IMG/VR virus record: IMGVR_UViG_3300050343_000190
Location: 22,212-86,211 of that record
DNA from: a virus
DNA: 64,000 nt
Direction: 5' to 3' (one strand)
Below, in pieces: positions 8,687 through 50,403 of the stretch. Position numbers and translations under genes: made by a program. The notes under the pieces are model-generated. The model searched no databases, was not told the origin of the DNA, and saw nothing but the letters and a program-made list of their open reading frames with translations. Positions within the stretch are counted from its first letter, which is position 1, and each line of letters begins with the position of its first letter.

Positions 8687-11600
8687 ATGTCAGATCCCCA
8701 AATTCGTTTAAAAAGGTCAACGGTAGCTGGTAAAATTCCAACTACATCACAACTTGCTCTTGGTGAAATAGCTGCTGTAAATGCTTTTGATGGAGAAATA
8801 TTTTTAAAGCAAGATACAGCAGGAGTTGGAATTGCAACTCGCGTCATTAGAGTTGGCGCTGGAGGATCTTTAGGTAAAACTATTTTTGTATGTAAAGAAG
8901 GTAATGATGATAATACTGGTCTAAATGAAAAGGATGCAAAACTAACAATCAAAAAAGCTGCTGCAGAGATAGCAGAAATTTTTGATACTGTTAAAGTTTA
9001 TCCTGGTGTATATGTTGAAAATAATCCTATTTTACTCGATAAGAACGTATCAGTAGAAGGTTTAGAATTAAGAAACTGTATTGTTTCTCCAGGAAATGCA
9101 GATAAAGATTTATTTCATGTAAATGATGGATGTCATCTAACTGACCTTGGATTTACAGGTTCGATGGACGCAGGTTCTGCTGCAGTCGCGTTTAGACCAC
9201 TTGAAAGCGTAGCATCTGATAGATATTTTGACGCAGCAAGACTTATTCGCGTCAACTCAGATTTTATTGCAAGAGAAGCAGTCGGATTCCTAACCAGTGG
9301 ATATAGTGGATATGCTGGTGGCCACCTTGAACAAGATGGTGCAAATGCTCTTGAGGCTAACTTAGATTATATTGCTCAAGAAGCAGTTGGTTATATTACA
9401 AGTACTGACTATAAAAATCCAGCATTTGTTGTTACCGATGTTGGTGGTGCTGCAGATGATCCACAAAACTGTAGAGATGATATTAAAGATATACTTAAAT
9501 CAGTTGCATACGACTTAAAGTCTACTGGTAATTTACAATCAGTAGGAGCAGCATTATCATATTTCACAGGTGGAGCTCTTGCTCATGTAACGGGAACAGA
9601 TACAAATGGTTATAGTATTGCCGATGCTACTGTCGCTGCTATTGATCGCGCTGCTGGTATCTCAACATATGTAATCAACCAGAGACCATGGGCTAGTGTT
9701 GGTGCTGGTGGTACTACAAATGTTACTGGATTTACTTACGATAAATTAACTGGTATTGCAACAGTCACTTCTGTTGGTCATGGTGTAACAACTGGTGATA
9801 TTGTTGAACTAGAAGGAATTGAATTTACCTGTCCTGGAGGCAGCGGAGTTACAACCAGTATTTTCCCAGATGGTTCAAACGGAGAATACTTTACAGTAAC
9901 AGAATATGTTGGAGTAAATACTTTCAAAACAAATGTTGGTATTTCTTCAATCTCACATGCATACGATACTGGTGGAACAGTAGAGAAGTACGTTAATTAT
10001 TCTACCAATAAAACTCAAGCAATTGATCCTACAAGAAGAAACAAGAGAATCTTATATGATAATTCAAATAATAAGATCGTTGTAGGAACAGGATGGTGTA
10101 CTGGTGTAGGTAATAGCATCAGTTATCTTACAGGAATTACATCAAGTGCTATTGGTGCTGGTTCTTCCTCTGGTGTTGTTGGAATTATTACTGGTATCAA
10201 TCTCGATACATTCCGTTGCTCAAGAGACGTAAGAGATATTCTCAAAGCAGTTTGCTACGATATTACAAGGGGTGGATCTACAAAAGTAGTTGCTGCTGGT
10301 AAGACCTACTTTGATGAGTCATTGGCTCAAATTGGTATTTCCTCCTTTGCTGCTGCTACTCTCAGTAAATCTCCATTTGATGAAGTAACACAAACAATCC
10401 GTGCAGTCGATTATGCACAAGATATTATTCGTTGCGTAATCAATAACACAACATGGGGTGGAGTTTCTATCGGATACACAACTCCAATTAGTGATATTGA
10501 TTGGGATACTAATACTGGTCTTGCAACTGTTACAACCAGATTTAATCACGATCTATCTAAAGATGATGGTATTGAAGTTACTGGACTAGGATTTACATGT
10601 CTTCCAGGATCTCCTGGAGATGAAACTACAATTCTTACTGCAACTTATGATAGTGTTACTGGTATTACTACGTTTGAAACATCAACGAATCATGAATTAA
10701 AGTCTGGTAATGGTATCATAGTTACTTCTACAACTGGTAGTGATTTCAATAATCTGATTGTAGATGATAGTATGTCCTCTACTACATTTACAGCAAGAGT
10801 TGGAAATGGACTTGCAGCATCTGCGGGTTTAACTGGAACGATTAAGGTTCAGCGTTACTACACTCCAGAAGTAGGAATTAACTCTGCTGTTTACGATAGA
10901 ATCACAGGATTTACTACAATTGGATTTACAGACAGTGGTTCTAGTAGTTCAGATAATGATCCGGCATATATTGATAATGATGGTAAAGTTCGTCTTGAGA
11001 ATTTGGTATTCCAGTGCGACTCTGGTGGTGGTCTTTCGACTCAGTATTTCCCCTCAGGTGCTCTTGGATTTGACTTCCCAGTAGAAAAAGTTGGTGGAGA
11101 CAGATATCAAGATTCTGCAAACTTAATCGCTGGTAACAAACTAGAAATCACAGATAAGGCTCTTGCGAATATTGCTATTCTTCATCCAGATTTCTTCTAT
11201 CCTGGAGATAATCAGATTACAACAACATCCAGATATAAGGATGCATATCGTCTAATCCAACAGAACAAAGGTGAAATTGTTGGTGCAGCATATACAAATG
11301 CTCAAGTAACATATCCATCAATCGATTCTACTAAGTTCAGAAGAAATCTGAATTACCTAGTAGATGCTGTTTCTACAGATATCTTCACCGGTGGTAATAA
11401 CTATACCGTTTCTGTTACTAACAAATACTTTGATAATGGAGGTTCTCTGATTGGAGAAGGTGATGATTCTATTGCAGGTGTGACTGAGGAAACAATTATT
11501 GCCTTCAATGAAGCAAAATCTTTAATGAAGCAGGCGATTGCTAATCAGTTATCAACAAAAGATACAACAGTTTCTGGTGGTTCTAGTTACTTTGGTGATG

Positions 11601-13765
11601 GAAGTCCTGCTATTGGTAATAGCGAAACTTACTCTTGTAGTGATGTTCAAGCATCTATCGATACACTTGTAAGCATTTCTACAGAAGCATTTGGTGTTGC
11701 TAACTTAAATGTTGTTAATGGTCTTACTATTAACTATGGTAACTTCCCTGCTGGTGAGTTTAAGTGTAGAAGAGATATTGCATATGTTGTTGATTCTATC
11801 ATAGATGATTTAAGAACAGATGGCAATAAGAACATTAGAGAGACAACTAGAAAGTACTTTGATGCTACTGGGGCACCTATTAGTGGTGGATTGATTGGAG
11901 AAGAATCTGAATCTGTAACAGGATTTACATCTATTGGAGAATATGCAAAACTTGCTATCAACAATCTCCTCAATTACAAAGATTACACAATTACCGCAGA
12001 TCCAGCTGTAGGAATTAATTCCTCTCCTTCTGGTTGTGCCGACATTCGTGCTTCTATTGATAGTCTTGTCGGTATCATAACCACTCATGTTGGTGCAGGA
12101 AATCTAAACAACTTCCCAACACTTTCTATCGCAAGTTCTATTACAGTTAATACTGGTATTTCAACATTAGATCATACTTACGTTGGTGGTGGTAGTGCTT
12201 TCGTTGGAATCACAACAACCGTATTCCCAGATGGAACATTTGGAAATATCTTTAACGTTGATACGATCGTTGGACCCACAACGTTTACTACAAACTTTGG
12301 ACCTAGTGATATTTCTCACACATATGCTACAAATACTGGTAACATCCTGAAGTTCCAACCATTTACTAAGAACTCTGGTTATGCTGGCGGACAAATCAAA
12401 GATGAGTCTATTCAATATGATCCTAGAGTTAATAGTAACACAAGCCCTGCTGGATGTAAGAACGTTCAGAGTGCTATCGATACTGTTATTGGTATTGTTA
12501 CCTCTATTGTTGGTGGTGGAATTACTGCAATTCAAGGTCCTGTAAATCCAACTGGTATTACCACAAGATTTGAAGGATTTGATGGTGTAGGTTACAACCC
12601 AGCAGAAGGTGAGGATGCCGATCTAAACTTTAGTCCTGGATGTGGACAGATCTTCAAAGGTCCATATGTAAGAAACTGTACAAACTTTATCTTTGATAGC
12701 ATCGGTCTGAAGATCGATGGATTTGCTGCAGAACCTGGAGATGAGGATGAAATTGGTGTTCAGGGTTCCATGTCGGTTGACTCTTACACGCAGTACAACC
12801 AGAGAGGAATTGGTGTATCGATTACAAACGGATCTTATGCTCAGTTGGTGTCTATCTTCACAATTTGCTGCGACGAAGCAATCGTAACATCAAGTGGTGG
12901 TCAGTGTGACTTGACTAACTCTAACTCTTCCTTCGGAAGAATTGGTCTTATCTCTAATGGAATTAGTGATGCTACAACTAAGTCTATCTACAGACAGACA
13001 GGAAAGGTTGTTAATGCTGCATCCGCTAATGATATTACATTAGAAGTAAGTGGTCTTGGAACACAAAGACCTTATGATGGTCAGGTGTATTATATCGATC
13101 AACTTTACTATTCATTAGCAGAAATTTCAATCACTAATGGTGGATCTGGATATAACATTCCAAACGATGCAATCGTTACAATTGAGTCTCCAACAGGACC
13201 AAATGGAATTTCTGCACAGGCAATTCCTACAGTTGAAAATGGAGCAGTAACAGCAGTTACTCTTATTAACACTGGTACTCAATATGAGACAAGAACACCA
13301 AATGTAAGCATTGCAGCGCCTCCTGGAGGTGGTACACAAGCAACTGCGGAAGTAAGTAAGAGTGATCCTTTATATTATAAAGTTGGTGCTGCAACCTTCC
13401 CAAGAGCAGGTATTTCAACTATCACTGCTGTTGCTGGGTTAAATAATGATGTAGGTGCTGGAGCTACTGTTTATCTAAGTCGCCAGAGTTTACAAATTAC
13501 ATCTTCTCACTCGTTTGAATATGTTGGTGCAGGTAATGATATCTTCACCGCAAGGCCTGGTGTTGGTGGTGTAACCATCCAAGAAAACGAGGTTGTTAAA
13601 GAAGAAGGTGGTGAAGTTATTTTCACATCTACTGACCAGGCAGGTAACTTTAGAATTGGTGATGGTGTTACCATCAACCAAGCAACTGGAACGATTACAG
13701 GTAGAACATACCTTAAATCTCTATTCAACAACGTAACACCATTCATTCTAGCACTAGGAGATTAA
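8687..13765 (+). CDS. Giant tailspike/fibre-like virion protein (1692 aa) with split beta-helix and helical phycobiliprotein-like inserts
   Basis: N-terminus QIRLKRSTVAGKIPTTSQLALGEIA resembles the T4 long tail fibre gp37 N-terminus; GNDDNTG...TIKKA...VYPGVYVE beta-helix start; beta-helix resumes at GPYVRNCTNF; ITNGGSGY motif; see findings. Confidence 0.8.
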   Translation: MSDPQIRLKRSTVAGKIPTTSQLALGEIAAVNAFDGEIFLKQDTAGVGIATRVIRVGAGGSLGKTIFVCKEGNDDNTGLNEKDAKLTIKKAAAEIAEIFDTVKVYPGVYVENNPILLDKNVSVEGLELRNCIVSPGNADKDLFHVNDGCHLTDLGFTGSMDAGSAAVAFRPLESVASDRYFDAARLIRVNSDFIAREAVGFLTSGYSGYAGGHLEQDGANALEANLDYIAQEAVGYITSTDYKNPAFVVTDVGGAADDPQNCRDDIKDILKSVAYDLKSTGNLQSVGAALSYFTGGALAHVTGTDTNGYSIADATVAAIDRAAGISTYVINQRPWASVGAGGTTNVTGFTYDKLTGIATVTSVGHGVTTGDIVELEGIEFTCPGGSGVTTSIFPDGSNGEYFTVTEYVGVNTFKTNVGISSISHAYDTGGTVEKYVNYSTNKTQAIDPTRRNKRILYDNSNNKIVVGTGWCTGVGNSISYLTGITSSAIGAGSSSGVVGIITGINLDTFRCSRDVRDILKAVCYDITRGGSTKVVAAGKTYFDESLAQIGISSFAAATLSKSPFDEVTQTIRAVDYAQDIIRCVINNTTWGGVSIGYTTPISDIDWDTNTGLATVTTRFNHDLSKDDGIEVTGLGFTCLPGSPGDETTILTATYDSVTGITTFETSTNHELKSGNGIIVTSTTGSDFNNLIVDDSMSSTTFTARVGNGLAASAGLTGTIKVQRYYTPEVGINSAVYDRITGFTTIGFTDSGSSSSDNDPAYIDNDGKVRLENLVFQCDSGGGLSTQYFPSGALGFDFPVEKVGGDRYQDSANLIAGNKLEITDKALANIAILHPDFFYPGDNQITTTSRYKDAYRLIQQNKGEIVGAAYTNAQVTYPSIDSTKFRRNLNYLVDAVSTDIFTGGNNYTVSVTNKYFDNGGSLIGEGDDSIAGVTEETIIAFNEAKSLMKQAIANQLSTKDTTVSGGSSYFGDGSPAIGNSETYSCSDVQASIDTLVSISTEAFGVANLNVVNGLTINYGNFPAGEFKCRRDIAYVVDSIIDDLRTDGNKNIRETTRKYFDATGAPISGGLIGEESESVTGFTSIGEYAKLAINNLLNYKDYTITADPAVGINSSPSGCADIRASIDSLVGIITTHVGAGNLNNFPTLSIASSITVNTGISTLDHTYVGGGSAFVGITTTVFPDGTFGNIFNVDTIVGPTTFTTNFGPSDISHTYATNTGNILKFQPFTKNSGYAGGQIKDESIQYDPRVNSNTSPAGCKNVQSAIDTVIGIVTSIVGGGITAIQGPVNPTGITTRFEGFDGVGYNPAEGEDADLNFSPGCGQIFKGPYVRNCTNFIFDSIGLKIDGFAAEPGDEDEIGVQGSMSVDSYTQYNQRGIGVSITNGSYAQLVSIFTICCDEAIVTSSGGQCDLTNSNSSFGRIGLISNGISDATTKSIYRQTGKVVNAASANDITLEVSGLGTQRPYDGQVYYIDQLYYSLAEISITNGGSGYNIPNDAIVTIESPTGPNGISAQAIPTVENGAVTAVTLINTGTQYETRTPNVSIAAPPGGGTQATAEVSKSDPLYYKVGAATFPRAGISTITAVAGLNNDVGAGATVYLSRQSLQITSSHSFEYVGAGNDIFTARPGVGGVTIQENEVVKEEGGEVIFTSTDQAGNFRIGDGVTINQATGTITGRTYLKSLFNNVTPFILALGD

Positions 13766-16333: not shown

Positions 16334-16936
16334 ATGTCTAATATTGATGAAGCAACAAGAATACCTTCAAAGGTCGGCAACCTTATGATGGTTGTTGTGA
16401 CTTGGAAAGGAAGAACATATGTTTTAAAAATGTTCTTCCCTCAAGCAAAACTTCCTTCAAGAAAAGAAGTTGAAGCACAAATGCAAGGAATTTATCCTGG
16501 ATCTAAAGTAAAATATACATCTGTTTCTGAGAAAGAACCTGGTGAAACCTTCTTATATGCAGAAGAGATTGAGATTGAAGAGAAAGCAAAGGATTGTTGG
16601 GACACCCACAAGAAAGTGGGTATGAAAATGAAAGGTGGTAAATTAGTAAATGATTGCCGTCCAAAGAATGAAGAAACGGAAGTTTCGGAAGGTGCTGCAT
16701 GGACTAAGAAGTCTGGTAAAAATAAAGAAGGTGGTCTCAATGAAAAAGGACGTAAGTCTTATGAAGCAGAAAATCCTGGTAGTGATCTGAAAGCACCATC
16801 TAAAAAGAAAGGTAATAAAAGAAGAGCATCATTCTGTGCAAGAATGAAAGGTATGAAGAAGAAATTAACCTCTGCTAAAACTGCTAGAGATCCCGATAGC
16901 AGAATTAATAAAAGTTTGAGAGCTTGGAATTGTTGA
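16334..16936 (+). CDS. Lys/Glu-rich modular hypothetical protein (possible internal head protein)
   Basis: 200 aa; EGAAWTKKSGKNKEGGLNEKGRKSY...RRASFCARM...SLRAWNC module conserved in cyanomyophages; late-promoter core upstream. Confidence 0.7.
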   Translation: MSNIDEATRIPSKVGNLMMVVVTWKGRTYVLKMFFPQAKLPSRKEVEAQMQGIYPGSKVKYTSVSEKEPGETFLYAEEIEIEEKAKDCWDTHKKVGMKMKGGKLVNDCRPKNEETEVSEGAAWTKKSGKNKEGGLNEKGRKSYEAENPGSDLKAPSKKKGNKRRASFCARMKGMKKKLTSAKTARDPDSRINKSLRAWNC

Positions 16937-19147: not shown

Positions 19148-21608
19148 ATGGCGACTCCTCAATTATCTCCTGGTGTATTAACCAGGGAAGTGGACCTAAC
19201 GGTAGGAAGAGCTGAGAATGTTTTAGATAATATTGGCGCTATCGCAGGACCCTTCCCTATTGGTCCCGTGGAAGATCCAACTGATGTGGCCACCGAGCAA
19301 GAACTCATCACAGAGTTCGGCAAACCAAGTAATAATAACAACCAGTATGAGTACTGGCTTGCAGCATCATCTTTCCTTTCATACGGCGGCGTACTGAAAG
19401 TTGTAAGAACTGATGGCGATAACCTGAAGAACGCATACCGAGGATTTGGTGCTTCAGGTTCTGCACCAAAAGTAAAAAATTACGAAGACTATCAAGATAA
19501 CCAGTCTGCAGATTCTGTAGATTGGGCATTCGCTGCCAAGAACCCAGGAGAATGGGCAAATGGTATTAAAGTCTGCGTTATCGACGATTTAGCAGACCAA
19601 AGACTAACTGTTAATAATGCTAACCTAGATGGTTTTAGCGTTGGAACAGGTATTACTTACACCCTATCAGGTGTAACAGTTCCAAATGCTTCTAATGGTA
19701 CTACCTCTACATTTGATGGTTTCTTAAAAGGTATCATTACAGGTAAAGATGAATCAAATAAAACCATTGATGTAAAAATTACATCAAGAGTTTCCGTTGG
19801 TTCTACAGCAAGCGTAGTTGCAAGATCTCAGACAACAGTTGGTATTCATACTGTTGCAGATTCAGTTATTACTGTTGGATCTACTGCTGGTATATCTACA
19901 TCTTCTGCTCTCACCGCAGAATTTGGAGATGGAACAGGATTCTTTAGTGTAGTCAGTGTTCTTTCTGGTAACAGAGTAACATTGGGAAGCACAATTGGTA
20001 GTAGTGTTGCTGCAGGCGTTGCAGTTACATTCTCTAATCTGATTTCTAATGCAGGTTCGATCACTGCTATTAACTATGCAGAAGGAGTAACAGGATCTGC
20101 ATTCCCATCTAGTGGAGTAATTTACTCACATTCAAGTGATGGTACATCGTCCGTTCCTTTCAGCATCACAAATGCAGTTGATTGGTATGATCAACAGACA
20201 CTTGGATTAACAAATTCCACAGTTTTCTGGAAGAACATCGCACCAAAAGCCAGTTACAAGTAGACATTCTACTGAAAGATCTGGTAAAGGAGATGCTCTC
20301 CACATTGCTGTCTATGATGATGAAGGAAAAGTAACAGGAATTCAAGGAAATCTTCTTGAGAAGCATACTTTCCTCTCTAAGGCTACAGATACAATTTCTG
20401 CAGTCAATTCTCCCCTGAAGGTATTCTATAAGGATTATCTCGCAGATAGATCCGAATACATTTTTGCAGGAGCAAATCTCGGTGATGAGAATGATTCCTT
20501 TAACGGAACAACAATTACTGCTATTGATTTCCAAACAAATACAACAGGAACTGCTTCAGCAAATACAACTGCACAATGGTCTGGAATCTCTACAGGATCT
20601 GGTTCTTGGAACACATTAGCACAAGGAATTTCCTTTAATGCTATTGGTGCTGCAACTTATGATCTTACAGGTGGTCAAGATTATGGTGCATCACAAGGAA
20701 TGCAAGCAACTCTTAGTGATGTAATTTCTGGATATTCTTTACTAACAAATAAAGATGAAGTAGAGGTTGACTTTGTACTTGGCGGTCCTGGACTTGCACA
20801 AGAAGATGAGTCTAGAGCAAAAGCAAACTATCTGATTTCCCTGGTTAACCAGAGAAAGGATTGCATGGCAACAATTTCTCCTCATAAAGCAAATGTTGTT
20901 GATGTTGCAAATTCTGATACTGCAACAGATAATGTTATCGCATTCTATTCGTCACTAACATCTTCATCGTATGCTGTATTCGATACTGGATACAAGTACA
21001 TGTATGATAGATTTAATGATAAGTTCCGTTATGTTCCAACCAACGGAGACGTTGGTGGTTTGATGGTAAGAACTAATCTTATCGCTTATCCATGGTTCTC
21101 CCCCGCTGGTCTTCAGAGAGGACAACTTAATAATGCAATCAAACTTGCATTTAATCCATCCAAGGCTCAAAGAGATAGACTCTATCCAAGAAGAATTAAC
21201 TCCATTGTTAATCAGTCTGGTTCAGGAATTCTGTTGTTCGGTGATAAGACCGCACTTGCTGTTTCTTCCGCATTCGATCGTATCAATGTTCGTCGTCTCT
21301 TCCTCACAGTTGAGCAAGCACTGCAAAAAGCAGCAGAGTCACAACTCTTTGAACTTAATGATCAGATCACAAGAGCAAACTTTGTTAATATCGTAGAACC
21401 TTATCTCCGCGATATTCAAGCAAAGAGAGGTATTTATGATTATCTGGTTATTTGTGATAAAACAAATAACACTCCAGATGTCATTGATAATAATGAGTTT
21501 AGAGCAGACATCTTCCTGAAGCCTGCTAAATCAATCAACTTCGTTACACTTACTTTCGTTGCTACGAGAACAGGTGTAAGTTTTGAAGAAGTTGCTGGTA
21601 GAGTTTAA
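19148..21608 (+). CDS. gp18: Tail sheath protein, frameshifted near 20250
   Basis: SPGVLTREVDLT start; PWFSPAG, GDKT, FDRINVRRLF, KPAKSINFVTLTFVATRTGVSFEE motifs. Confidence 0.97.
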
Positions 21609-21637: not shown

Positions 21638-22267
21638 ATGTCTACTTTACGCACAATTACTGACTTCAAAACCGCCCTTCAGGGCGGCGGCGCTAGAGCT
21701 AATTTATTTGAAGTCGATATTCCAACAATTCCAGCAGTAGCAACTCAAGGTATTGATTGGGATGCAGAAAACTTCCAGTTCCTGTGTAAGGCTGCGGCAC
21801 TTCCCGCATCCAACGTTGCACCTATCGATGTTCCCTTCAGAGGTCGTACTCTGAAGGTTGCTGGAGATAGAACTATTGAAAACTGGACTGTAACCGTCAT
21901 TAACGATGAAGACTTCAAATTAGAAATGCGATGGAAGCATGGATGAATGCAATTGCCAAACTCAGTAATAACACTGGTGCGGTACAAACCCCTCTTCCTA
22001 CATGACAAGATGCTTTGTTTATCAACTTGGAAGAGGTTGCTCATCAAGGTAGATTTAGTCAAACAAATTCTGCGTACTATCGATGGAGGTTCTGGAGTTA
22101 ACTCCTTTAGAAACATATCAAATTCTTGATATTTTCCCAGTTTCTGTTTCTCAATTGATCTTTCTTACGATTCGGCAGATACGATTGAAGAGTTTACTGT
22201 AGAATTTGCAGTTCAATCTTTTGAATCTCAGGCTCTGGTGGACGCAACTGGCGTTGCTCTGAACTAA
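21638..22267 (+). CDS. gp19: Tail tube protein, frameshifted
   Basis: GGGARANLFEV, FLCKAAALPASN, PFRGRTLKVAGDRT, WTVTVINDEDF; C-terminal IDLSYD..DTIEEFTVEFAVQ in other frames. Confidence 0.95.
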
Positions 22268-26367: not shown

Positions 26368-27764
26368 ATGTTCCAATCCGAACATCTGCAGGAAAAGTGG
26401 GCACCTCTCCTCAATCATGAGGGACTTGATTCAATCTCAAGATTCTCACAAGTAGAGCTGTAACCGCAGTCCTGTTAGAAAACCAAGAAAAATTCCTTAG
26501 AGAGCAATCCGCATTCGAGCAGGCTGGAATGCTTTGAGCAATCCAAGCACCACCAACGCTGTTGGTAATGGTGGGTATTTCCAGCTGGTGGTCAGACAGT
26601 TGCTGGTTTCGACCCCGTACTGATCTCCTTGATCAGACGCTCTATGCCTAACCTGGTCGCATATGACCTCGCAGGCGTTCAACCAATGTCTGGTCCTACT
26701 GGACTCATCTTCGCGATGCGTTCGAAGTACGAGACTCAGAACGGTACAGAGAGCATTCTTCGACGAAGCAGATACCGCATTCTCTGGTCAGAACGAGGTT
26801 TGACCTCACCAACGGCATTCACCGATGTTACTTCCGTTGGTATGGGTACTACCGCACAAGCAGGTAGCTAACCCCGGTGCACTGAACCCTGTTGGTTCTG
26901 CAACCGAATCAGGGATATACTGTTGGTCAGGGTATGCGTACCGATGATGCTGAAACCTCGGCACAGCTGGTGACCACTTCAACCAGATGGCATTCTCGAT
27001 CGAGAAAGTCACCGTAACCGCCAAGTCCAGAGCTCTGAAAGCAGAGTACTCTTTAGAACTGGCACAAGACCTTAAGGCAATCCACGGTCTGAACGCTGAA
27101 GCGGAACTCGCAAACATCCTCTCTACTGAGATCCTTGCTGAGATCAACCGTGAAGTCATCAGAACTATCTACAAGGTTGCTGAGCAAGGCGCAACACAAA
27201 ACGTTGCAACTGCTGGTGAGTTTGACCTCGACATCGACTCCAACGGACGTTGGTCTGTTGAGAAGTTCAAAGGTCTTCTGTTCCAAATCGAAAGAGATGC
27301 GAACGCAATCGCACAAAGAACTCGTAGAGGAAAGGGCAACGTAATCATGTGCTCCGCTGACGTTGCTTCCGCACTTGCACCATGGCTGGTGTACTTGATT
27401 ACACCCCTGCACTCAACGCTAACCTTGAACGTTGATGACACTGGTAACACCTTCGCTGGTGTTCTGCAAGGTAAGTATCGCGTATACATCGATCCTTATT
27501 CTGCAAACAACGCTGCTAACCAGTACTACGTTGTTGGTTATAAGGGTACTTCCCCTTATGACGCAGGTCTATTCTACTGCCCATACGTTCCCCTTCAGAT
27601 GGTTCGTGCAGTTGGAGAGAACACCTTCCAGCCCAAAATCGGCTTTAAGACTCGCTACGGCATGGTTGCTAACCCCTTCGCACAAGGAACCACAGTTGGC
27701 GCTGGTGCTCTTAACCAATGCTAACCGCTACTACCGTCGCGTTGCAGTTAAGAACCTCATGTGA
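26368..27764 (+). CDS. gp23: Major capsid protein, frameshifted
   Basis: LQEKWAPLL, LIRRSMPNLVAYDLAGVQPMSGPTGLIFAMRS, MAFSIEKVTVTAKSRALKAEYSLELAQDLKAIHG, YCPYVPLQM, YYRRVAVKNLM. Confidence 0.98.
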
Positions 27765-40332: not shown

Positions 40333-40550
40333 TGAGTTTATTCTCTAAACCTACCGAAGAAAATTTAACTAATCCTGTAGTAAAAACTACTTCCGAAAAC
40401 GTAAAGGAATCGCATGAAGCATTGTTTTATGCTACAATGAATTTACCAGAAGCGGCTGCTCACTGTGGTATGACTCAGAAGGAAATGAAAATGACTTTCT
40501 GGGAGTACTTAAAATATAATGAACCAAACTATGAATGTGACGAACGATGA
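40332..40550 (+). CDS. Small HTH-like hypothetical protein
   Basis: MNLPEAAAHCGMTQKEMKMTFWEY. Confidence 0.55.
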   Translation: MSLFSKPTEENLTNPVVKTTSENVKESHEALFYATMNLPEAAAHCGMTQKEMKMTFWEYLKYNEPNYECDER

Positions 40551-41647
40551 TGCTGTATGGGCAGCAAATGAGTTTATAAACTACTTCTCCAATATGGGGA
40601 ATATTGAAGATTATCTCAGGTTCGTAAAGAAAGAAGTAATCAATTCATCAAGTTCTATTTTTTCATTACATGATGACTTCTTCAATGAAGACATTCATCC
40701 TGAAGAGATGGAATTTGATATCAAATTTGTGGGGGAAAGATTTCAACAATCTATTCCTCAAGATCATTATGGAAATTTGCTGAGAGCAGTTTCTTCTCAT
40801 AACAATGAAAGTAATATACCTGGAAGAGAACTACGTTGGGTAGTTTTTGAAAAGAGGACACAAACTGTTCTTGGATTTATTAGGTTTGGTTCTCCTACTA
40901 TTAATTCTAGACCAAGAAATATATGGTTGGGAAAGGCACCTGATCTGAGGATCTTTAATCGTCATGCTGCGATGGGATTTGTGATCGTTCCTTCTCAACC
41001 ATTTGGATATAACTACCTTGGAGGGAAACTCCTTGCGCTCTTGTGCTGCTCTCACTTCGCCCGTGAGACGCTTAATGAGGTCTTTGAGAAGGACATTGCT
41101 CTCTTTGAAACAACGTCTCTCTACGGGTCTACTACAGATGCCTCACAGTACGATGGACTCAAACCGTTCATGCGATTCAGGGGTTTGACTGAAAGTAAGT
41201 TCTTACCTCTTCTTCATGATGAGGTATTTCATCGTCTTCACGATCGTTTTACTATCCTCAATAATAATACTCCCTTGACTGATAGTAAGGGCTTCTTCTA
41301 AGAAACTAAAACGTCAGACGAAGATGATTTCTATTATTCGCAATTCACTTGAGGATACTGAAAAACTGAATGAGTTTAATTCTGTGATTAATATTGCTTT
41401 TAATCTAACTCAAAAGAAGAGATTTTATATTTCTAATTATGGATATGAAAATGTGCGTGAAGTTATTTGTGGTGAACAAGAAACTCTAGTTCGCGGTCCT
41501 AACTGGGAAAAGTTTCACCTTGAGAATATTATTTCTTGGTGGAAGAAGAAATCAACCAAGAGATATGAAAAACTAAAAAGGGAAGGAAGGTTCAGAACAA
41601 AAGTTGAACTATGGACAGATGATGACGACATTCAGATTATCCGATGA
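40519..41647 (+). CDS. DUF4338/DruA-like (Mom/GNAT-related) protein; one frameshift near 41290
   Basis: IPGRELRW...LGFIRFGSP, VPSQPFGYNYLGGKLLA, FETTSLYG..SQYDGL motifs; an extra G in a GGG run joins ORFs 40519-41301 and 41324-41647. Confidence 0.75.
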
Positions 41648-44768: not shown

Positions 44769-44821
44769 TATCGTCACCACAGAGGACGACTGGTAAAATC
44801 CAGTAAGTCCTCTATTTTTTT
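44769..44821 (+). terminator. Terminator-type hairpin element, copy 1 (upstream of glyA)
   Basis: AGAGGAC-g-ACTGG-taaaat-CCAGT-aa-GTCCTCT followed by a T run. Confidence 0.75.
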
Positions 44822-44831
44822 GGAGATTATT

Positions 44832-46062
44832 ATGAGTTTAGAAGTCAACGATTCATTAGTTAACGGATTTATCCAAAAAGAACTAGAGAGACAACAGAAT
44901 CATCTAGAGATGATTGCTAGTGAGAACTTTACGTCTCCTGATGTGATGGAAGCTCAGGGTTCAATTCTTACTAATAAGTATGCAGAAGGATTGCCTGGTA
45001 AAAGATACTATGGTGGATGTGAATGGGTTGACCAGATTGAAGATCTAGCAAGAGAAAGAGTAAAAAAACTATTCAATGCAGAGTGGGCAAATGTCCAACC
45101 TCATAGTGGAGCACAAGCAAATGCTGCTGTATTCCTTGCTCTTCTGAAACCAGGAGACACTGTTCTATCTCTTGATCTATCTCATGGTGGTCATCTATCC
45201 CACGGATCAAAAGTTAATATGTCTGGTAAGTGGTTCAATGTTTGCCACTATGAAGTTGATGAGACTGGTAGACTGGACTACGATAGAATATTAGAACTTG
45301 CAAGGGAATGTAAACCACAACTTATCATCTGCGGGTTCTCTGCATACACTAGAACAATTGATTTTAGTAAGTTTAGAAATATTGCTGATGAAGTTGGATC
45401 ATATCTATTAGCAGACATTGCACACATTGCAGGATTGGTTGCATCAGGTGTTCATCCATCACCACTTCCATATGCAGATGTAGTTACCACAACAACTCAT
45501 AAGACTCTGAGAGGTCCGAGAGGTGGGTTGATTATGTCTAATGATGTGGAGATGGGTAAGAGGTTAGACAAGGCAGTATTTCCAGGAACTCAGGGTGGTC
45601 CATTGGAACATGTGATTGCTGCAAAAGCAGTTGCATTCGGTGAGGCACTTAAACCAGAATTCAGAGAATATTGTCTTCAAGTTGTTGCTAATGCAAAATC
45701 TCTTGGTCGTAGATTAATTGAAAATGGTATCAATATTGTGTCTGATGGAACAGATAATCATATTGTTCTACTTGATTTGAGAAGTCTAGGAATCACAGGT
45801 AAGTTTGCTGATCAACTTGTGAGTGAAATTAATATCACTGCAAATAAAAATACAGTTCCTTTTGATCCTGAGTCTCCCTTTGTTACCAGTGGATTACGTT
45901 TAGGTACTGCTGCTCTTACTACTAGAGGGTTTGATGAAAACGACTTTGTTGAAGTTGCTGATATTATTGCAAGTCGATTAAACAATTATGAGCAAGAAGG
46001 AAATAAAGAAGAGTGTTTAAGTAAGAGTATCTAAACTTTGTAAAAGTAATCCTCTCTACTAA
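44832..46062 (+). CDS. glyA: Serine hydroxymethyltransferase (auxiliary metabolic gene)
   Basis: [40 protein letters not shown] (PLP lysine), [15 protein letters not shown]; a likely indel near 46025 hides the usual ...LCKSNPLY end. Confidence 0.97.
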
Positions 46063-47914: not shown

Positions 47915-50403
47915 TGTCCAGATGATTGGGAACAAATTCCTAGTCAGAGGATATGAAAATGGTCAGAGGGTTATGTACAAGGATGATTTTTTTCCTACCT
48001 TGTATGTTCCTTCTAAAAAACAATCTTCTTACAAAACTCTTGAGGGTGAAAATGTAGAACCTATTAAACCTGGTACCGTCAGGGATTGTAGAGAATTCTA
48101 CAAAAAGTATGAGGATGTGGAAGGATTTAAGATCTATGGAAATGATCGTTATGTAAGTCAGTATATTTCCGAGAAGTACACTGAGAAAGAAATAAAGTTT
48201 GATATAACAAAACTAAAACTACTCACTATTGATATTGAGGTTTCTGCTGAATATGGGTTTCCAGATACGGAATCTGTAGCAGAAGAAATGCTCACTATTG
48301 CTATTCAAGATTACAATACAAAAAAGATTATTGTATGGGGTGTGAAACCTTTTAACAATACACAGGAGAATGTTAGTTATATCAATTGTGGTGATGAGTA
48401 TACTATGCTCATCAAGTTTTTGGATTGGTGGGAGAATAATTATCCAGACATTATCACTGGTTGGAATGTTCAACTATATGATATTCCATATATTTGTGGG
48501 AGAGTCAATCGTGTTCTTGGTGAGAAAGCCATGAAAAAGTTTTCTCCTTGGGGTCTTGTGAGTCAGAAAGAAGTTTACATCATGGGGAGAAAGAATATTG
48601 CATTTGAAGTGGGTGGTCTTTCTCAACTTAGACTACATGGATTTGTATAAGAAGTTTACTTATAAGGCACAAGAATCATATCGCCTAGACTCATATAGCT
48701 GAGGTTGAACTTGGTCAAAAGAAACTTGACCACTCTGAGTTTGATACGTTCAAAGATTTCTATACTGGTAACTGGCAGAAGTTATTGAATACAATATTGT
48801 TGACGTAGAACTTGTTGACCGACTGGAAGACAAGATGAAACTGATTGAACTTGCATTGACTATGGCATATGATGCAAAGTTAATTATGCATGATGTGTTC
48901 TATCAGGTTCGTATGTGGGATAATATAATCTACAATTATTTGAAAGAAGAGGGATATTGTTATTCCCTCCAAAAGATTCGTTCTGATAAAAACGAAAAGT
49001 ATGCAGGTGCATATGTTAAAGAACCGATTCCGGGAAAGTATGATTGGGTTGTGTAGTTTTGACCTTAACTAGTCTGTATCCTCATCTTATCATGCAATAC
49101 AACATCTCTCCAGAAACTTACTGGATGAGAAACATCCAACAGCAGCAGTTGATAAAATCCTTGAATGAAGAGATAAACTTTGAGTTGTATAAAGATAATG
49201 CGGTCTGTGCTAATGGTGCAATGTATCGTAAAGATGTTCGTGGGTTTCTACCAGAACTTGATGGAGAAGATGTATGGAGATCGTGTTATCTTTAAAAAGA
49301 GAATGCTTCAGGCAAAGCAAGCAATATGAAAAGACACCTACTAAGTTGCACTTGAGAAAGAGATTGCACGGTGCAACAACATTCAAATGGCGAAGAAGAT
49401 CTCTCTTAACTCTGCTTATGGTGCTATTGGTAATCAATACTTTAGGTATTACAAACTAGCAAATGCAGAAGCGATCACTTTGTCTGGTCAAGTATCAATC
49501 AGATGGATTGAAATGCGTATGAACGCATATCTAAATAAACTATTGCAAACGGAAGGTGTCGATTATGTTATTGCATCCGACACTGATTCAATTTATCTTA
49601 GTCTCGGACCTCTTGTTGATAAATTTTTTACTGATAAGTCTGGCGATAAAACAAAGATTGTTGGAATACTTGATAAGATCTGTGAAGATAAGTTGGAACC
49701 ATTCATCGAGTCCAGTTATAAGAAACTTGCGAATTACGTTTCGGCATATGAACAAAAAATGATCATGAAGCGTGAGAATATCGCTGAACGTGGTATCTGG
49801 ACTGCGAAGAAGCGATACATTCTTAACGTATGGGATAGTGAAGGTGTTAGATATGAAGAACCCAAACTAAAGATTATGGGATTGGAAGCTGTAAAATCTT
49901 CTACTCCTGCCCCCTGTCGTAAGATGATCAAGGATGCTTTAAAAATAATTCTCAATGGGACAGAAGATGAAGTTATCGAATTCATTGAAAACTGCAGAAA
50001 AGATTTTAGGTCTCTTCCCCCAGAAGAAATTGCATTTCCAAGAACTGCATCAGATGTTAAGAAGTATGCTTCATCTTCGCACATCTATTCAAAGGGAACT
50101 CCTATTCATGTTAGGGGTGCCCTGCTGTTTAACTATTATGTAAAAGAGAATAAATTAAATAATAAGTATTCTCTTATCAATAATGGTGAGAAGATTAAAT
50201 TTATATACATGAAGAAACCGAATCCGATTCATGAAAATGTTTTATCTTTCATACAAGAGTTTCCTCATGAGTTAAACTTGACTAAGTATATTGATTATGA
50301 ATTGCAGTTTGATAAGAGTTTTTTAGAACCTCTTAAGTCTATCCTTGATGCTATTGGATGGAGTGTTGAAAAGAAAATCAGTCTTGATTCTTTCTTTGAA
50401 TAG
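47898..50403 (+). CDS. gp43: Family B DNA polymerase, frameshifted
   Basis: IDIE exonuclease motif, TGWN...DIPY, YAGAYV, SLYPH, KISLNSAYG, ASDTDS, KKRY, MGLEAVKSSTP. Confidence 0.98.

Follow-up and report, generated by a model that had tools for sequence, protein, structure and literature searches.

Predicted phycobiliprotein-like domains carrying a conserved bilin-site motif in a tail-fibre or baseplate protein of a T4-like cyanophage

Do the particles of some cyanophages contain domains of the light-harvesting antenna proteins of cyanobacteria and, if so, do these domains still hold a pigment? The question is raised by a 64,000-nucleotide stretch of viral DNA (hereafter the window; positions 22,212 to 86,211 of IMG/VR record IMGVR_UViG_3300050343_000190), and specifically by a gene encoding a 1692-residue virion protein of the tail-fibre or baseplate type. 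To our knowledge, apart from a domain of ApcE, phycobiliproteins (PBPs) are known only as subunits of the light-harvesting antennae that cyanobacteria, red algae and cryptophytes possess; to find the PBP fold and its pigment-holding residues multiplied in structural proteins of viruses that infect those cells is unexpected. An earlier note, made from the sequence alone, had pointed to a resemblance between helical motifs of this protein and PBP subunits, and this resemblance was recovered by the Pfam family PF00502, by hhalign and by structural searches. The helical units are very probably true homologues of the globin domains of PBPs, and the most likely explanation is that PBP domains were captured from a cyanobacterial host and multiplied in the baseplate and tail-fibre proteins of T4-like cyanophages. 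A literature search found no description of PBP-like domains in cyanophage virion proteins.

The motifs that drew attention to the protein are three kinds of helix in four copies each, and all twelve are present at exactly the residues that the earlier note had assigned to them, within aa 178-1281 (nucleotides 9218-12530). Helices of the A/B type lie at aa 182-202, 217-237, 809-842 and 852-869; helices carrying the C-x-R-D motif or its remnant at aa 261-282 (C262), 510-530 (C511), 883-904 (F884) and 1026-1047 (C1027); and closing helices at aa 470-481 (C471), 983-994 (C984), 1116-1127 (C1117) and 1256-1267 (C1257). In a full period, four helices come after a pair of A/B-type helices. Self-BLASTP of the 1692-residue protein gave no off-diagonal match, so that the copies are too diverged for pairwise BLAST and profile methods are needed. 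A hidden Markov model (HMM) built from units 3 and 4 recovered five copies, partly split, in the protein itself, and 3-12 copies per protein of 1.7-3.1 thousand residues in 15 related viral contigs (E-values down to 1e-73); judged by these profile matches, the repeat is not due to chance.

The relationship to PBPs is best seen when profiles are compared with profiles. An alignment of 48 units, compared by hhalign with 36 PBPs taken from the Acaryochloris plasmid pREB3 and three cyanobacterial genomes, gave a probability of 68% (P 4.7e-5) and placed C7, R9 and D10 of the unit on Cys84, Arg86 and Asp87 of the PBPs. When the units were extended by their preceding helices (67 segments, the first row being aa 798-1010 of the window protein), the probability was 96.0% (P 3.8e-9, score 60.9, 81 columns), with aa ~846-924 in register with PBP residues 34-127; the profile comparison of an excised segment with PBPs that the earlier note had proposed thus came out in favour of remote homology to this family. 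At a relaxed threshold, the same alignment is collinear over PBP residues 10-168, its G and H regions being aligned at low confidence. Control comparisons with the reversed PBP alignment and with 30 column-shuffled versions of it yielded scores of 9-19, probabilities of at most 1.5% and P values of at least 0.03.

Other sequence searches count against homology. PF00502 matches aa 809-855 of the whole protein at profile positions 33-78 with 15.3 bits (E 0.02), and the excised aa 800-1010 with 15.1 bits; the gathering score of the family (22.2 bits) is not reached. None of the 48 single units matches PF00502, Pfam scans having given scattered sub-threshold matches only; phmmer with the whole protein found no match among the PDB sequences, and the unit profile found among them phycocyanin alpha, over residues 79-103, at an E-value of about 0.8-1.4. 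It could be argued from these figures that the likeness to PBPs is convergent or fortuitous, the units being generic helical bundles with a short look-alike motif.

The AlphaFold2 model of aa 798-1010 comprises eight helices, with a predicted local distance difference test (pLDDT) score of 77 and a predicted template-modelling (pTM) score of 0.75. When it was compared by VIA-align with 48,161 chains, ranks 1-8 were all taken by PBPs or by PBP domains of ApcE (Z 15.1, 13.9, 13.6, 13.2, 12.1, 12.1, 12.0 and 12.0), the alignments covering PBP residues 23-184. The closest neighbour is phycoerythrin beta (5aqd_M, Z 15.1), aligned over 140 residues; the bilin domain of ApcE (4xxi) follows with Z 13.9 and a root-mean-square deviation (rmsd) of 2.2. 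Ranks 9-26 are occupied by other globin-fold proteins, save a de novo design at rank 15, and the first neighbours not named as globin-fold are colicins, from rank 27 onwards, with Z of 6.3 at most. Foldseek concurs: all of its best 50 matches are PBP chains, mostly chain B, at a probability of 1.00, with target-normalised TM-scores of 0.52-0.71 and E-values of 0.01-0.06. Since PBPs rank first in the structural searches, the fold predicted for aa 798-1010 is PBP-like, with the helix order (X, Y) A, B, E, F, G, H of the PBP globin-like fold. A fold that was not globin-like was among the outcomes that would have told against the earlier note; its globin-like proposal is borne out by the AlphaFold models together with VIA-align and Foldseek, with PBPs as the closest relatives. 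Unit 4 alone (aa 1021-1140) was modelled as four helices with higher scores (pLDDT 87.5, pTM 0.80). Its VIA-align neighbours include the non-haem globin of RsbR (Z 9.6) and PBPs (Z 8.4-7.0) over PBP residues of about 74-184, which is the E-H half of the domain; Foldseek on this single-unit model returned nothing significant.

The modest Foldseek E-values, and the fact that helical folds often reach middling Z, might again be quoted in favour of a chance likeness. Yet the profile-profile P value is set apart from those of all 31 controls, two independent structural aligners rank PBPs first and then nearly all other globin-fold proteins, and sequence and structure alignments agree in register, with the unit cysteine on Cys84 and collinearity over the whole domain. 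Convergence or chance is therefore regarded as highly improbable.

The unit is not a peculiarity of one protein. With the 48-unit profile, 1213 cluster representatives were retrieved from 1.84 billion proteins, single proteins holding as many as 35 copies, so that the unit forms a large family without Pfam representation. Two subfamilies can be told apart by their cysteines. The two-Cys subfamily includes the window protein as well as the units of phages S-PM2 and P-HM2, whose unit-bearing proteins include S-PM2d088 and PHM2_086. The one-Cys subfamily has a regular period of ~162 aa, which is the size of a whole PBP, and includes metagenomic giants (P0006, P0007, P0009, P0014 and others) with 15-35 copies per protein of 3.5-6.4 thousand residues; each unit of these giants has exactly one cysteine, located in the C-x-R-D motif, and the repeat region of one giant of the one-Cys type matches cyanophages.

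What has been conserved within this family bears directly on the second half of the question. The motif lies on helix E, and the profile comparisons align its Cys, Arg and Asp with Cys84, Arg86 and Asp87, in agreement with the proposal that the first cysteine is the equivalent of the bilin-binding Cys84. Among 512 full units from 150 representatives, whose overall identity is 25-40%, C7 is kept in 98%, R9 in 95%, D10 in 99%, D21 in 98% and Y37 in 99.8%. Loss of Cys and Asp is correlated, for D10 is missing from 4 of the 8 units without C7 and from 1 of the 504 units with it (Fisher P 1.2e-7), which argues for one joint function of Cys and Asp. In the window protein the triad is intact in unit 2 (C511-S-R-D) and unit 4 (C1027-R-R-D). 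A second cysteine, where present, stands in the G-H loop directly before helix H, the topological place of beta-Cys153/155 in PBPs; the equivalence is suggested by that position, the relaxed hhalign run having given no confident alignment of the two.

The earlier note had offered as its own alternative a purely structural helical bundle stabilised by disulfides. Pairing within the unit was considered as a general cause of the cysteine conservation and ruled out, because 254 of the 512 units have no second cysteine with which to pair. In PBP beta subunits, residues 84 and 155 are far apart.

A more serious alternative is that the units are PBP homologues which no longer carry a chromophore, their fold having been exapted to act, within the long proteins of baseplate and fibre, as a rigid spacer or bead made of helices. 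On this view the C-x-R-D motif, D21, N27 and Y37 would serve folding, helix capping or contacts between units or chains, and two-Cys units might engage in redox chemistry or form disulfides outside the cell. Several features of the units fit such beads and weigh against a working bilin site. Tandem domains with a period of 130-165 aa and up to 35 copies per protein are typical of structural repeats. Unit 1 of the window protein reads C262-R-D-D, with no Arg at +2, and in unit 3 the motif has become F884-R-R-N, so that neither Cys nor Asp is left; Cys-less units such as the latter are evidently tolerated. The A/B helices, which complete and close the bilin pocket of PBPs, are missing from many units, among them unit 4 and those of the tandem arrays of 130 aa. 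Other PBP invariants (R93, Y97, G102, G114 and D155) are not retained as a set in the hhalign register with the 36 PBPs: a conserved Asp stands opposite R93 and a variable residue opposite Y97, and only G102 is matched, by G25 of a G-G-N motif. The units have instead invariants of their own, D21, N27 and Y37, which are absent from PBPs, so that C-x-R-D could belong to a new structural core. On the other hand, the three residues of the triad, which in PBPs are known to do nothing but hold the bilin, persist at 95-99% across hundreds of paralogues with 25-40% identity, and the near-invariant cysteine of half of the units stands alone, with no disulfide partner within the unit; the joint loss of Cys and Asp also counts against a spacer. 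Exaptation without a chromophore is considered a serious possibility, somewhat short of even.

It is also conceivable that the Cys-Arg-Asp site binds something other than a bilin, for example a metal shared between the chains of a trimeric fibre, haem (which other globin-fold proteins bind), or a molecule of the host surface, in which case the units would be receptor-binding or metal-stabilised modules. Tail-fibre and baseplate components are indeed the site of host recognition, phage fibres often use metal sites (T4 gp12 and gp37), and the structural neighbours that come next after PBPs are haem-binding or ligand-free globin sensors (RsbR and globin-coupled sensors; Z 7-11). Against this, a conserved His is missing from both the proximal and the distal haem position, conservation falls on the residues of the PBP bilin site and not on those of a typical metal site, and PBPs score Z 12-15 where haem globins reach 11 or less. 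Another ligand is thus an improbable explanation.

The distribution of the unit adds a further line of evidence. A tblastn search with aa 800-1140 matched 326 phage records, all of them Synechococcus, Prochlorococcus, cyanophage or marine, and in BFVD every named match at a probability of 1.00 is a Synechococcus phage; when genome contigs were scanned with this segment, neither bacteria nor archaea yielded a relative. Judged by these searches, the unit is confined to cyanophages. The earlier note had reasoned that a repeat common in phages of non-phototrophs would speak against a bilin role, and no named phage of this kind with the unit appeared in tblastn, in BFVD or among 24 phage genomes scanned with the unit profile and Pfam CpeT. 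The unit is absent from T4 and from the Pelagibacter phage HTVC008M (NC_020484); the latter, a myovirus of the Kyanoviridae with a heterotrophic host and with neither unit nor cpeT, serves as a natural negative control.

Across the 24 genomes, 12 have both the unit and cpeT, three the unit only, none cpeT only and nine neither, so that every cpeT-bearing phage (12/12) has the unit and no unit-less phage (0/9) has cpeT; with no correction for phylogeny, Fisher P is 3e-4, or 0.004 when the cyanomyoviruses are taken by themselves. The co-occurrence supports the link between unit and CpeT that had been proposed from the sequence. The nine phages with neither are the cyanomyoviruses P-SSM2, S-SSM7 and S-SM2 together with S-CRM01, S-TIM5, HTVC008M, T4, P-SSP7 and Syn5. 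The three exceptions tell against a strict association: S-T4 and S-SKS1 have units and no detectable cpeT, and P-SSM7 has units and only sub-threshold cpeT candidates. For P-SSM7 a CpeT-like gene is listed in a published table, if its column order is correctly read (PMC3037559, Table 3). Four of the phages, P-HM1, P-HM2, P-SSM4 and P-SSM2, have a gene for bilin reductase; the last of these lacks the unit, which indicates that bilin reductase is not tied to the unit and is a further point on the debit side. Neither cpeT nor a bilin reductase gene was found on the 86-kb contig (~45% complete), which extends to the whole contig fragment what had been said of the window. For the chromophore-less alternative the evidence cuts both ways: that some unit-bearing phages have no detectable cpeT favours it, whereas the presence of the unit in every sampled cpeT-bearing phage, its confinement to phages of bilin-making hosts and its absence from a related myovirus of a heterotroph do not.

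Light enters the picture through adsorption. P-HM1 and P-HM2 are reported to fail to adsorb without light, whereas P-SSM2 and P-SSP7 adsorb in the dark (PMC6628666). Adsorption that depends on light had been shown before for S-PM2; it does not require photosynthesis and has been attributed to host receptors and/or tail fibres (PMC6628666). The light-requiring P-HM1, P-HM2 and S-PM2 have the unit; the dark-adsorbing P-SSM2 and P-SSP7 do not. The association is suggestive, with five phages and P 0.1, and so small a sample is in itself a weakness.

Taken together, the conservation of the triad would be accounted for if units with an intact C-x-R-D motif (here units 2 and 4, possibly unit 1) bound a linear tetrapyrrole, phycoerythrobilin (PEB) or phycocyanobilin (PCB), made by the host or by the phage enzymes Ho1, PebS or PcyA. 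The bilin would be attached by a thioether bond to the first cysteine during folding of the protein in the infected cell. For the two-Cys subfamily, to which the window protein belongs, the second cysteine before helix H would be the natural target of the phage T-type lyase CpeT, and the baseplate or fibres of the assembled virion would bear bilins. Such a pigment would most plausibly serve a light-dependent change that gates adsorption, with photoprotection or a purely stabilising cofactor as alternatives. That the bilin site is still functional in at least some units is given a chance only just short of even. We know of no report of coloured cyanophage preparations, which counts against it; the expected absorbance would be small. 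The full proposition goes further: marine T4-like cyanophage particles would be chromoproteins, with arrays of PBP-derived domains bearing covalently bound bilins, the so far orphan lyase CpeT acting on the second cysteine, and a virion photoreceptor making adsorption dependent on light. This is considered unlikely as a whole. Of the interpretation put forward in the earlier note, the PBP fold and the Cys84 register are supported, and the link to CpeT gains support from co-occurrence; its conserved bilin-site cysteines must be narrowed down in this protein, since units 2 and 4 have the full motif and units 1 and 3 do not, and its label 'tailspike-like' is loose, for tail fibre or baseplate wedge (gp7-like) is what both the matches in the PHROG database and the annotated homologues indicate.

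The arrangement of the domains along the protein is summarised in Table 1. In a jackhmmer search with aa 798-1010 as query, aa 171-355 align to query positions 1-154 (E 1e-40) and are thus a paralogue of aa 798-950. Domain 2 is matched both by the unit HMM (aa 505-624 to profile positions 3-75) and by jackhmmer (aa 495-610 to query positions 82-157, E 5e-20). Domain 3, the most complete one, has lost the equivalents of Cys84 and Asp87 (F884 and N887) and kept its second cysteine, C984. The orphan helix H is matched by the unit HMM (aa 1210-1279 to positions 77-116) and by jackhmmer (aa 1223-1282 to query positions 169-207), and, with its G-H loop, it probably closes domain 2. As parts of units are separated by beta-rich inserts, a nested arrangement is suggested, in which four PBP-like domains would be strung and nested between beta-rich domains. 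It is in the N-terminal aa 1-170 that tblastn also finds matches to records other than those of cyanophages; at the other end, the best stretches for phrog_3442 and phrog_17885 are aa 1186-1692, and tblastn matches extend to residue 1690-1692 in many cyanophages.

Table 1. Features of the 1692-residue protein and its gene (nucleotide positions in the window)
Feature	Residues (aa)	Nucleotides	Strand	Basis
Whole gene, tail-fibre/baseplate-type virion protein	1-1692	8687..13765	+	Open reading frame list, translation, PHROG, homologues, neighbours
N-terminal non-helical part, outside the PBP-like region	1-170	8687..9196	+	No unit or A/B profile coverage
PBP-like domain 1, helices a1, a2, E, F, G; C262-R-D-D (Arg shifted)	171-355	9197..9751	+	jackhmmer, motif positions
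Beta-rich insertion between helices G and H of domain 1 (putative nesting)	356-465	9752..10081	+	Lies between core match and closing helix
Putative closing helix H of domain 1, C471	466-490	10082..10156	+	Motif WC471TGVGNSISYL; assigned from order alone
PBP-like domain 2, helices E, F, G; C511-S-R-D intact	495-610	10169..10516	+	Unit HMM, jackhmmer
Beta-rich inserted region	611-797	10517..11077	+	No match to unit or A/B profiles
PBP-like domain 3, complete (a1, a2, E, F, G, H)	798-1010	11078..11716	+	AlphaFold2, VIA-align, Foldseek, hhalign, PF00502
PBP-like domain 4, limited to helices E-H; intact C1027-R-R-D; C1117 as second Cys	1011-1143	11717..12115	+	AlphaFold2, VIA-align
Beta-rich domain	1144-1249	12116..12433	+	Occupies the place of a unit's first helices in the unit alignment
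Orphan G-H loop and helix H, C1257	1250-1282	12434..12532	+	Unit HMM, jackhmmer
C-terminal part, conserved tail-fibre C-terminus	1283-1692	12533..13765	+	PHROG, tblastn

A further observation concerns the 'A/B' element, which is duplicated: two R-Y-x-D-A...N...I helix pairs stand in tandem before units 1 and 3, at aa 171-240 (nucleotides 9197-9406) and aa 798-880 (nucleotides 11078-11326). Pfam places the first A/B copy on PBP helix B and its P-x4-P-G-G-N loop, and hhalign places the second copy on the same helix.

The source of the window is an 86-kb IMG/VR viral contig, ~45% complete, which on its gene content is that of a T4-like cyanomyophage. A fragment of gp23, the major capsid protein, is 88% identical to gp23 of Synechococcus myophages; the neighbouring genes encode tail fibre, baseplate (wedge initiator), tail sheath and gp23, with DNA polymerase, UvsX-like and gp41-like proteins nearby. 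The 1692-residue protein matches PHROG tail fibre families with E-values from 4e-301 to 1e-81 (among them phrog_17885, tail fibre, E 3e-237; phrog_4527, E 4e-88; and phrog_5342, E 1e-81), and both this family match and its position in the tail module place it among the T4-like tail fibre and baseplate wedge proteins. The homologues found in myophages of Synechococcus and Prochlorococcus go by the names of tail, tail fibre, baseplate wedge (gp7-like) or virion structural protein, and the last of these depositors' annotations would place the protein in the virion.

Some other genes of the window deserve mention. The tail sheath is encoded in two open reading frames (ORFs), 19148-20263 and 20700-21608, which match phrog_23 at positions 19-181 and 188-474; the gp23 ORF (26987-27724) covers only positions 134-361 of Pfam Gp23, and the DNA polymerase B ORF (49387-50403) only the C-terminal part of that protein. 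Introns, inteins, homing elements or assembly frameshifts could account for these fragmented ORFs. A full-length serine hydroxymethyltransferase of the glyA type (44820-46034, + strand; PF00464, E 1.8e-170) would be an unusual auxiliary metabolic gene for a cyanomyophage, and an ORF at 40519-41301 (+ strand) matches the DruA domain of the Druantia defence system (PF14236, E 1.2e-9). Downstream of the gene under study, a 200-aa ORF (16334-16936, + strand) matches with its C-terminal ~90-120 residues the C-termini of ten PHROGs of unknown function (E-values down to 2e-64); its C-terminus looks like a widely shared module found downstream of fibre genes.

As for known systems, the closest are the alpha and beta subunits of PBPs (PF00502; CpcA/B, CpeA/B and ApcA/B), and especially the beta subunits, with which the phage units share the helix order X/Y-like, A/B, E, F, G, H; the best Foldseek matches are almost all chain B, which is the beta subunit in most of the entries listed. 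Sequence identity between phage units and PBPs is only 12-18%. PBPs are free subunits of 160-170 aa assembled into alpha-beta rings, whereas the phage units are virus-encoded internal domains of the 1692-residue protein and of relatives of 1-7 thousand residues, 4 to 35 of them being strung or nested in virion proteins of 1.7-7 thousand residues, and not free alpha and beta subunits forming the (alpha-beta)3 rings of a phycobilisome; unlike PBPs, many of them are without helices A/B, and R93 and Y97 are not kept.

In its setting the phage domain is more akin to ApcE (LCM), in which a PBP domain likewise occurs inside a large multidomain protein and is interrupted by an inserted loop. ApcE entries are among the nearest neighbours of aa 798-1010, namely 4xxi (18% identity) and 7eyd, 7sc7 and 9wg7 (Z 12.0-12.1). 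ApcE attaches its bilin without a lyase, and a PBP domain within a larger protein can thus be chromophorylated. It differs in being a cellular component of the phycobilisome, in which just one PBP domain precedes the REP linker domains, and its binding cysteine is not at the equivalent of position 84, the position whose cysteine the phage units keep. Non-haem and haem globin-fold sensors (the N-terminal domain of RsbR, globin-coupled sensors and pXO2-61) belong to the same fold class (3zta, Z 9.6-10.9; 3pmc, Z 9.9; 4uiq and 4zva, Z 9.3-9.4) and illustrate that a domain of this fold can sense signals as part of a larger assembly. Their scores are below those of PBPs; they are without C-x-R-D and are cytoplasmic signalling proteins.

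On the viral side, the gene resembles those of the T4 gp7-type wedge and the long and short tail fibre proteins of T4-like cyanophages in lying within a module of tail-fibre, baseplate and sheath genes, and the unit-bearing homologue of P-HM2 is annotated as gp7 baseplate wedge (4454 aa). T4 and HTVC008M are without the unit; the helical PBP-like inserts are specific to cyanophages. Many cyanomyoviruses have cpeT, and some pebS, pcyA or ho1, even where their hosts have no phycobilisomes (PMC3037559), and the role of phage cpeT, pebS and pcyA has been called unresolved or a mystery (PMC3037559). The PBP-like units offer a concrete candidate, both as a substrate for these phage bilin genes and as a sensor in light-dependent adsorption. 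Even without bound pigment, they would be a clear case of a fold of host photosynthesis turned into a building block of the virion.

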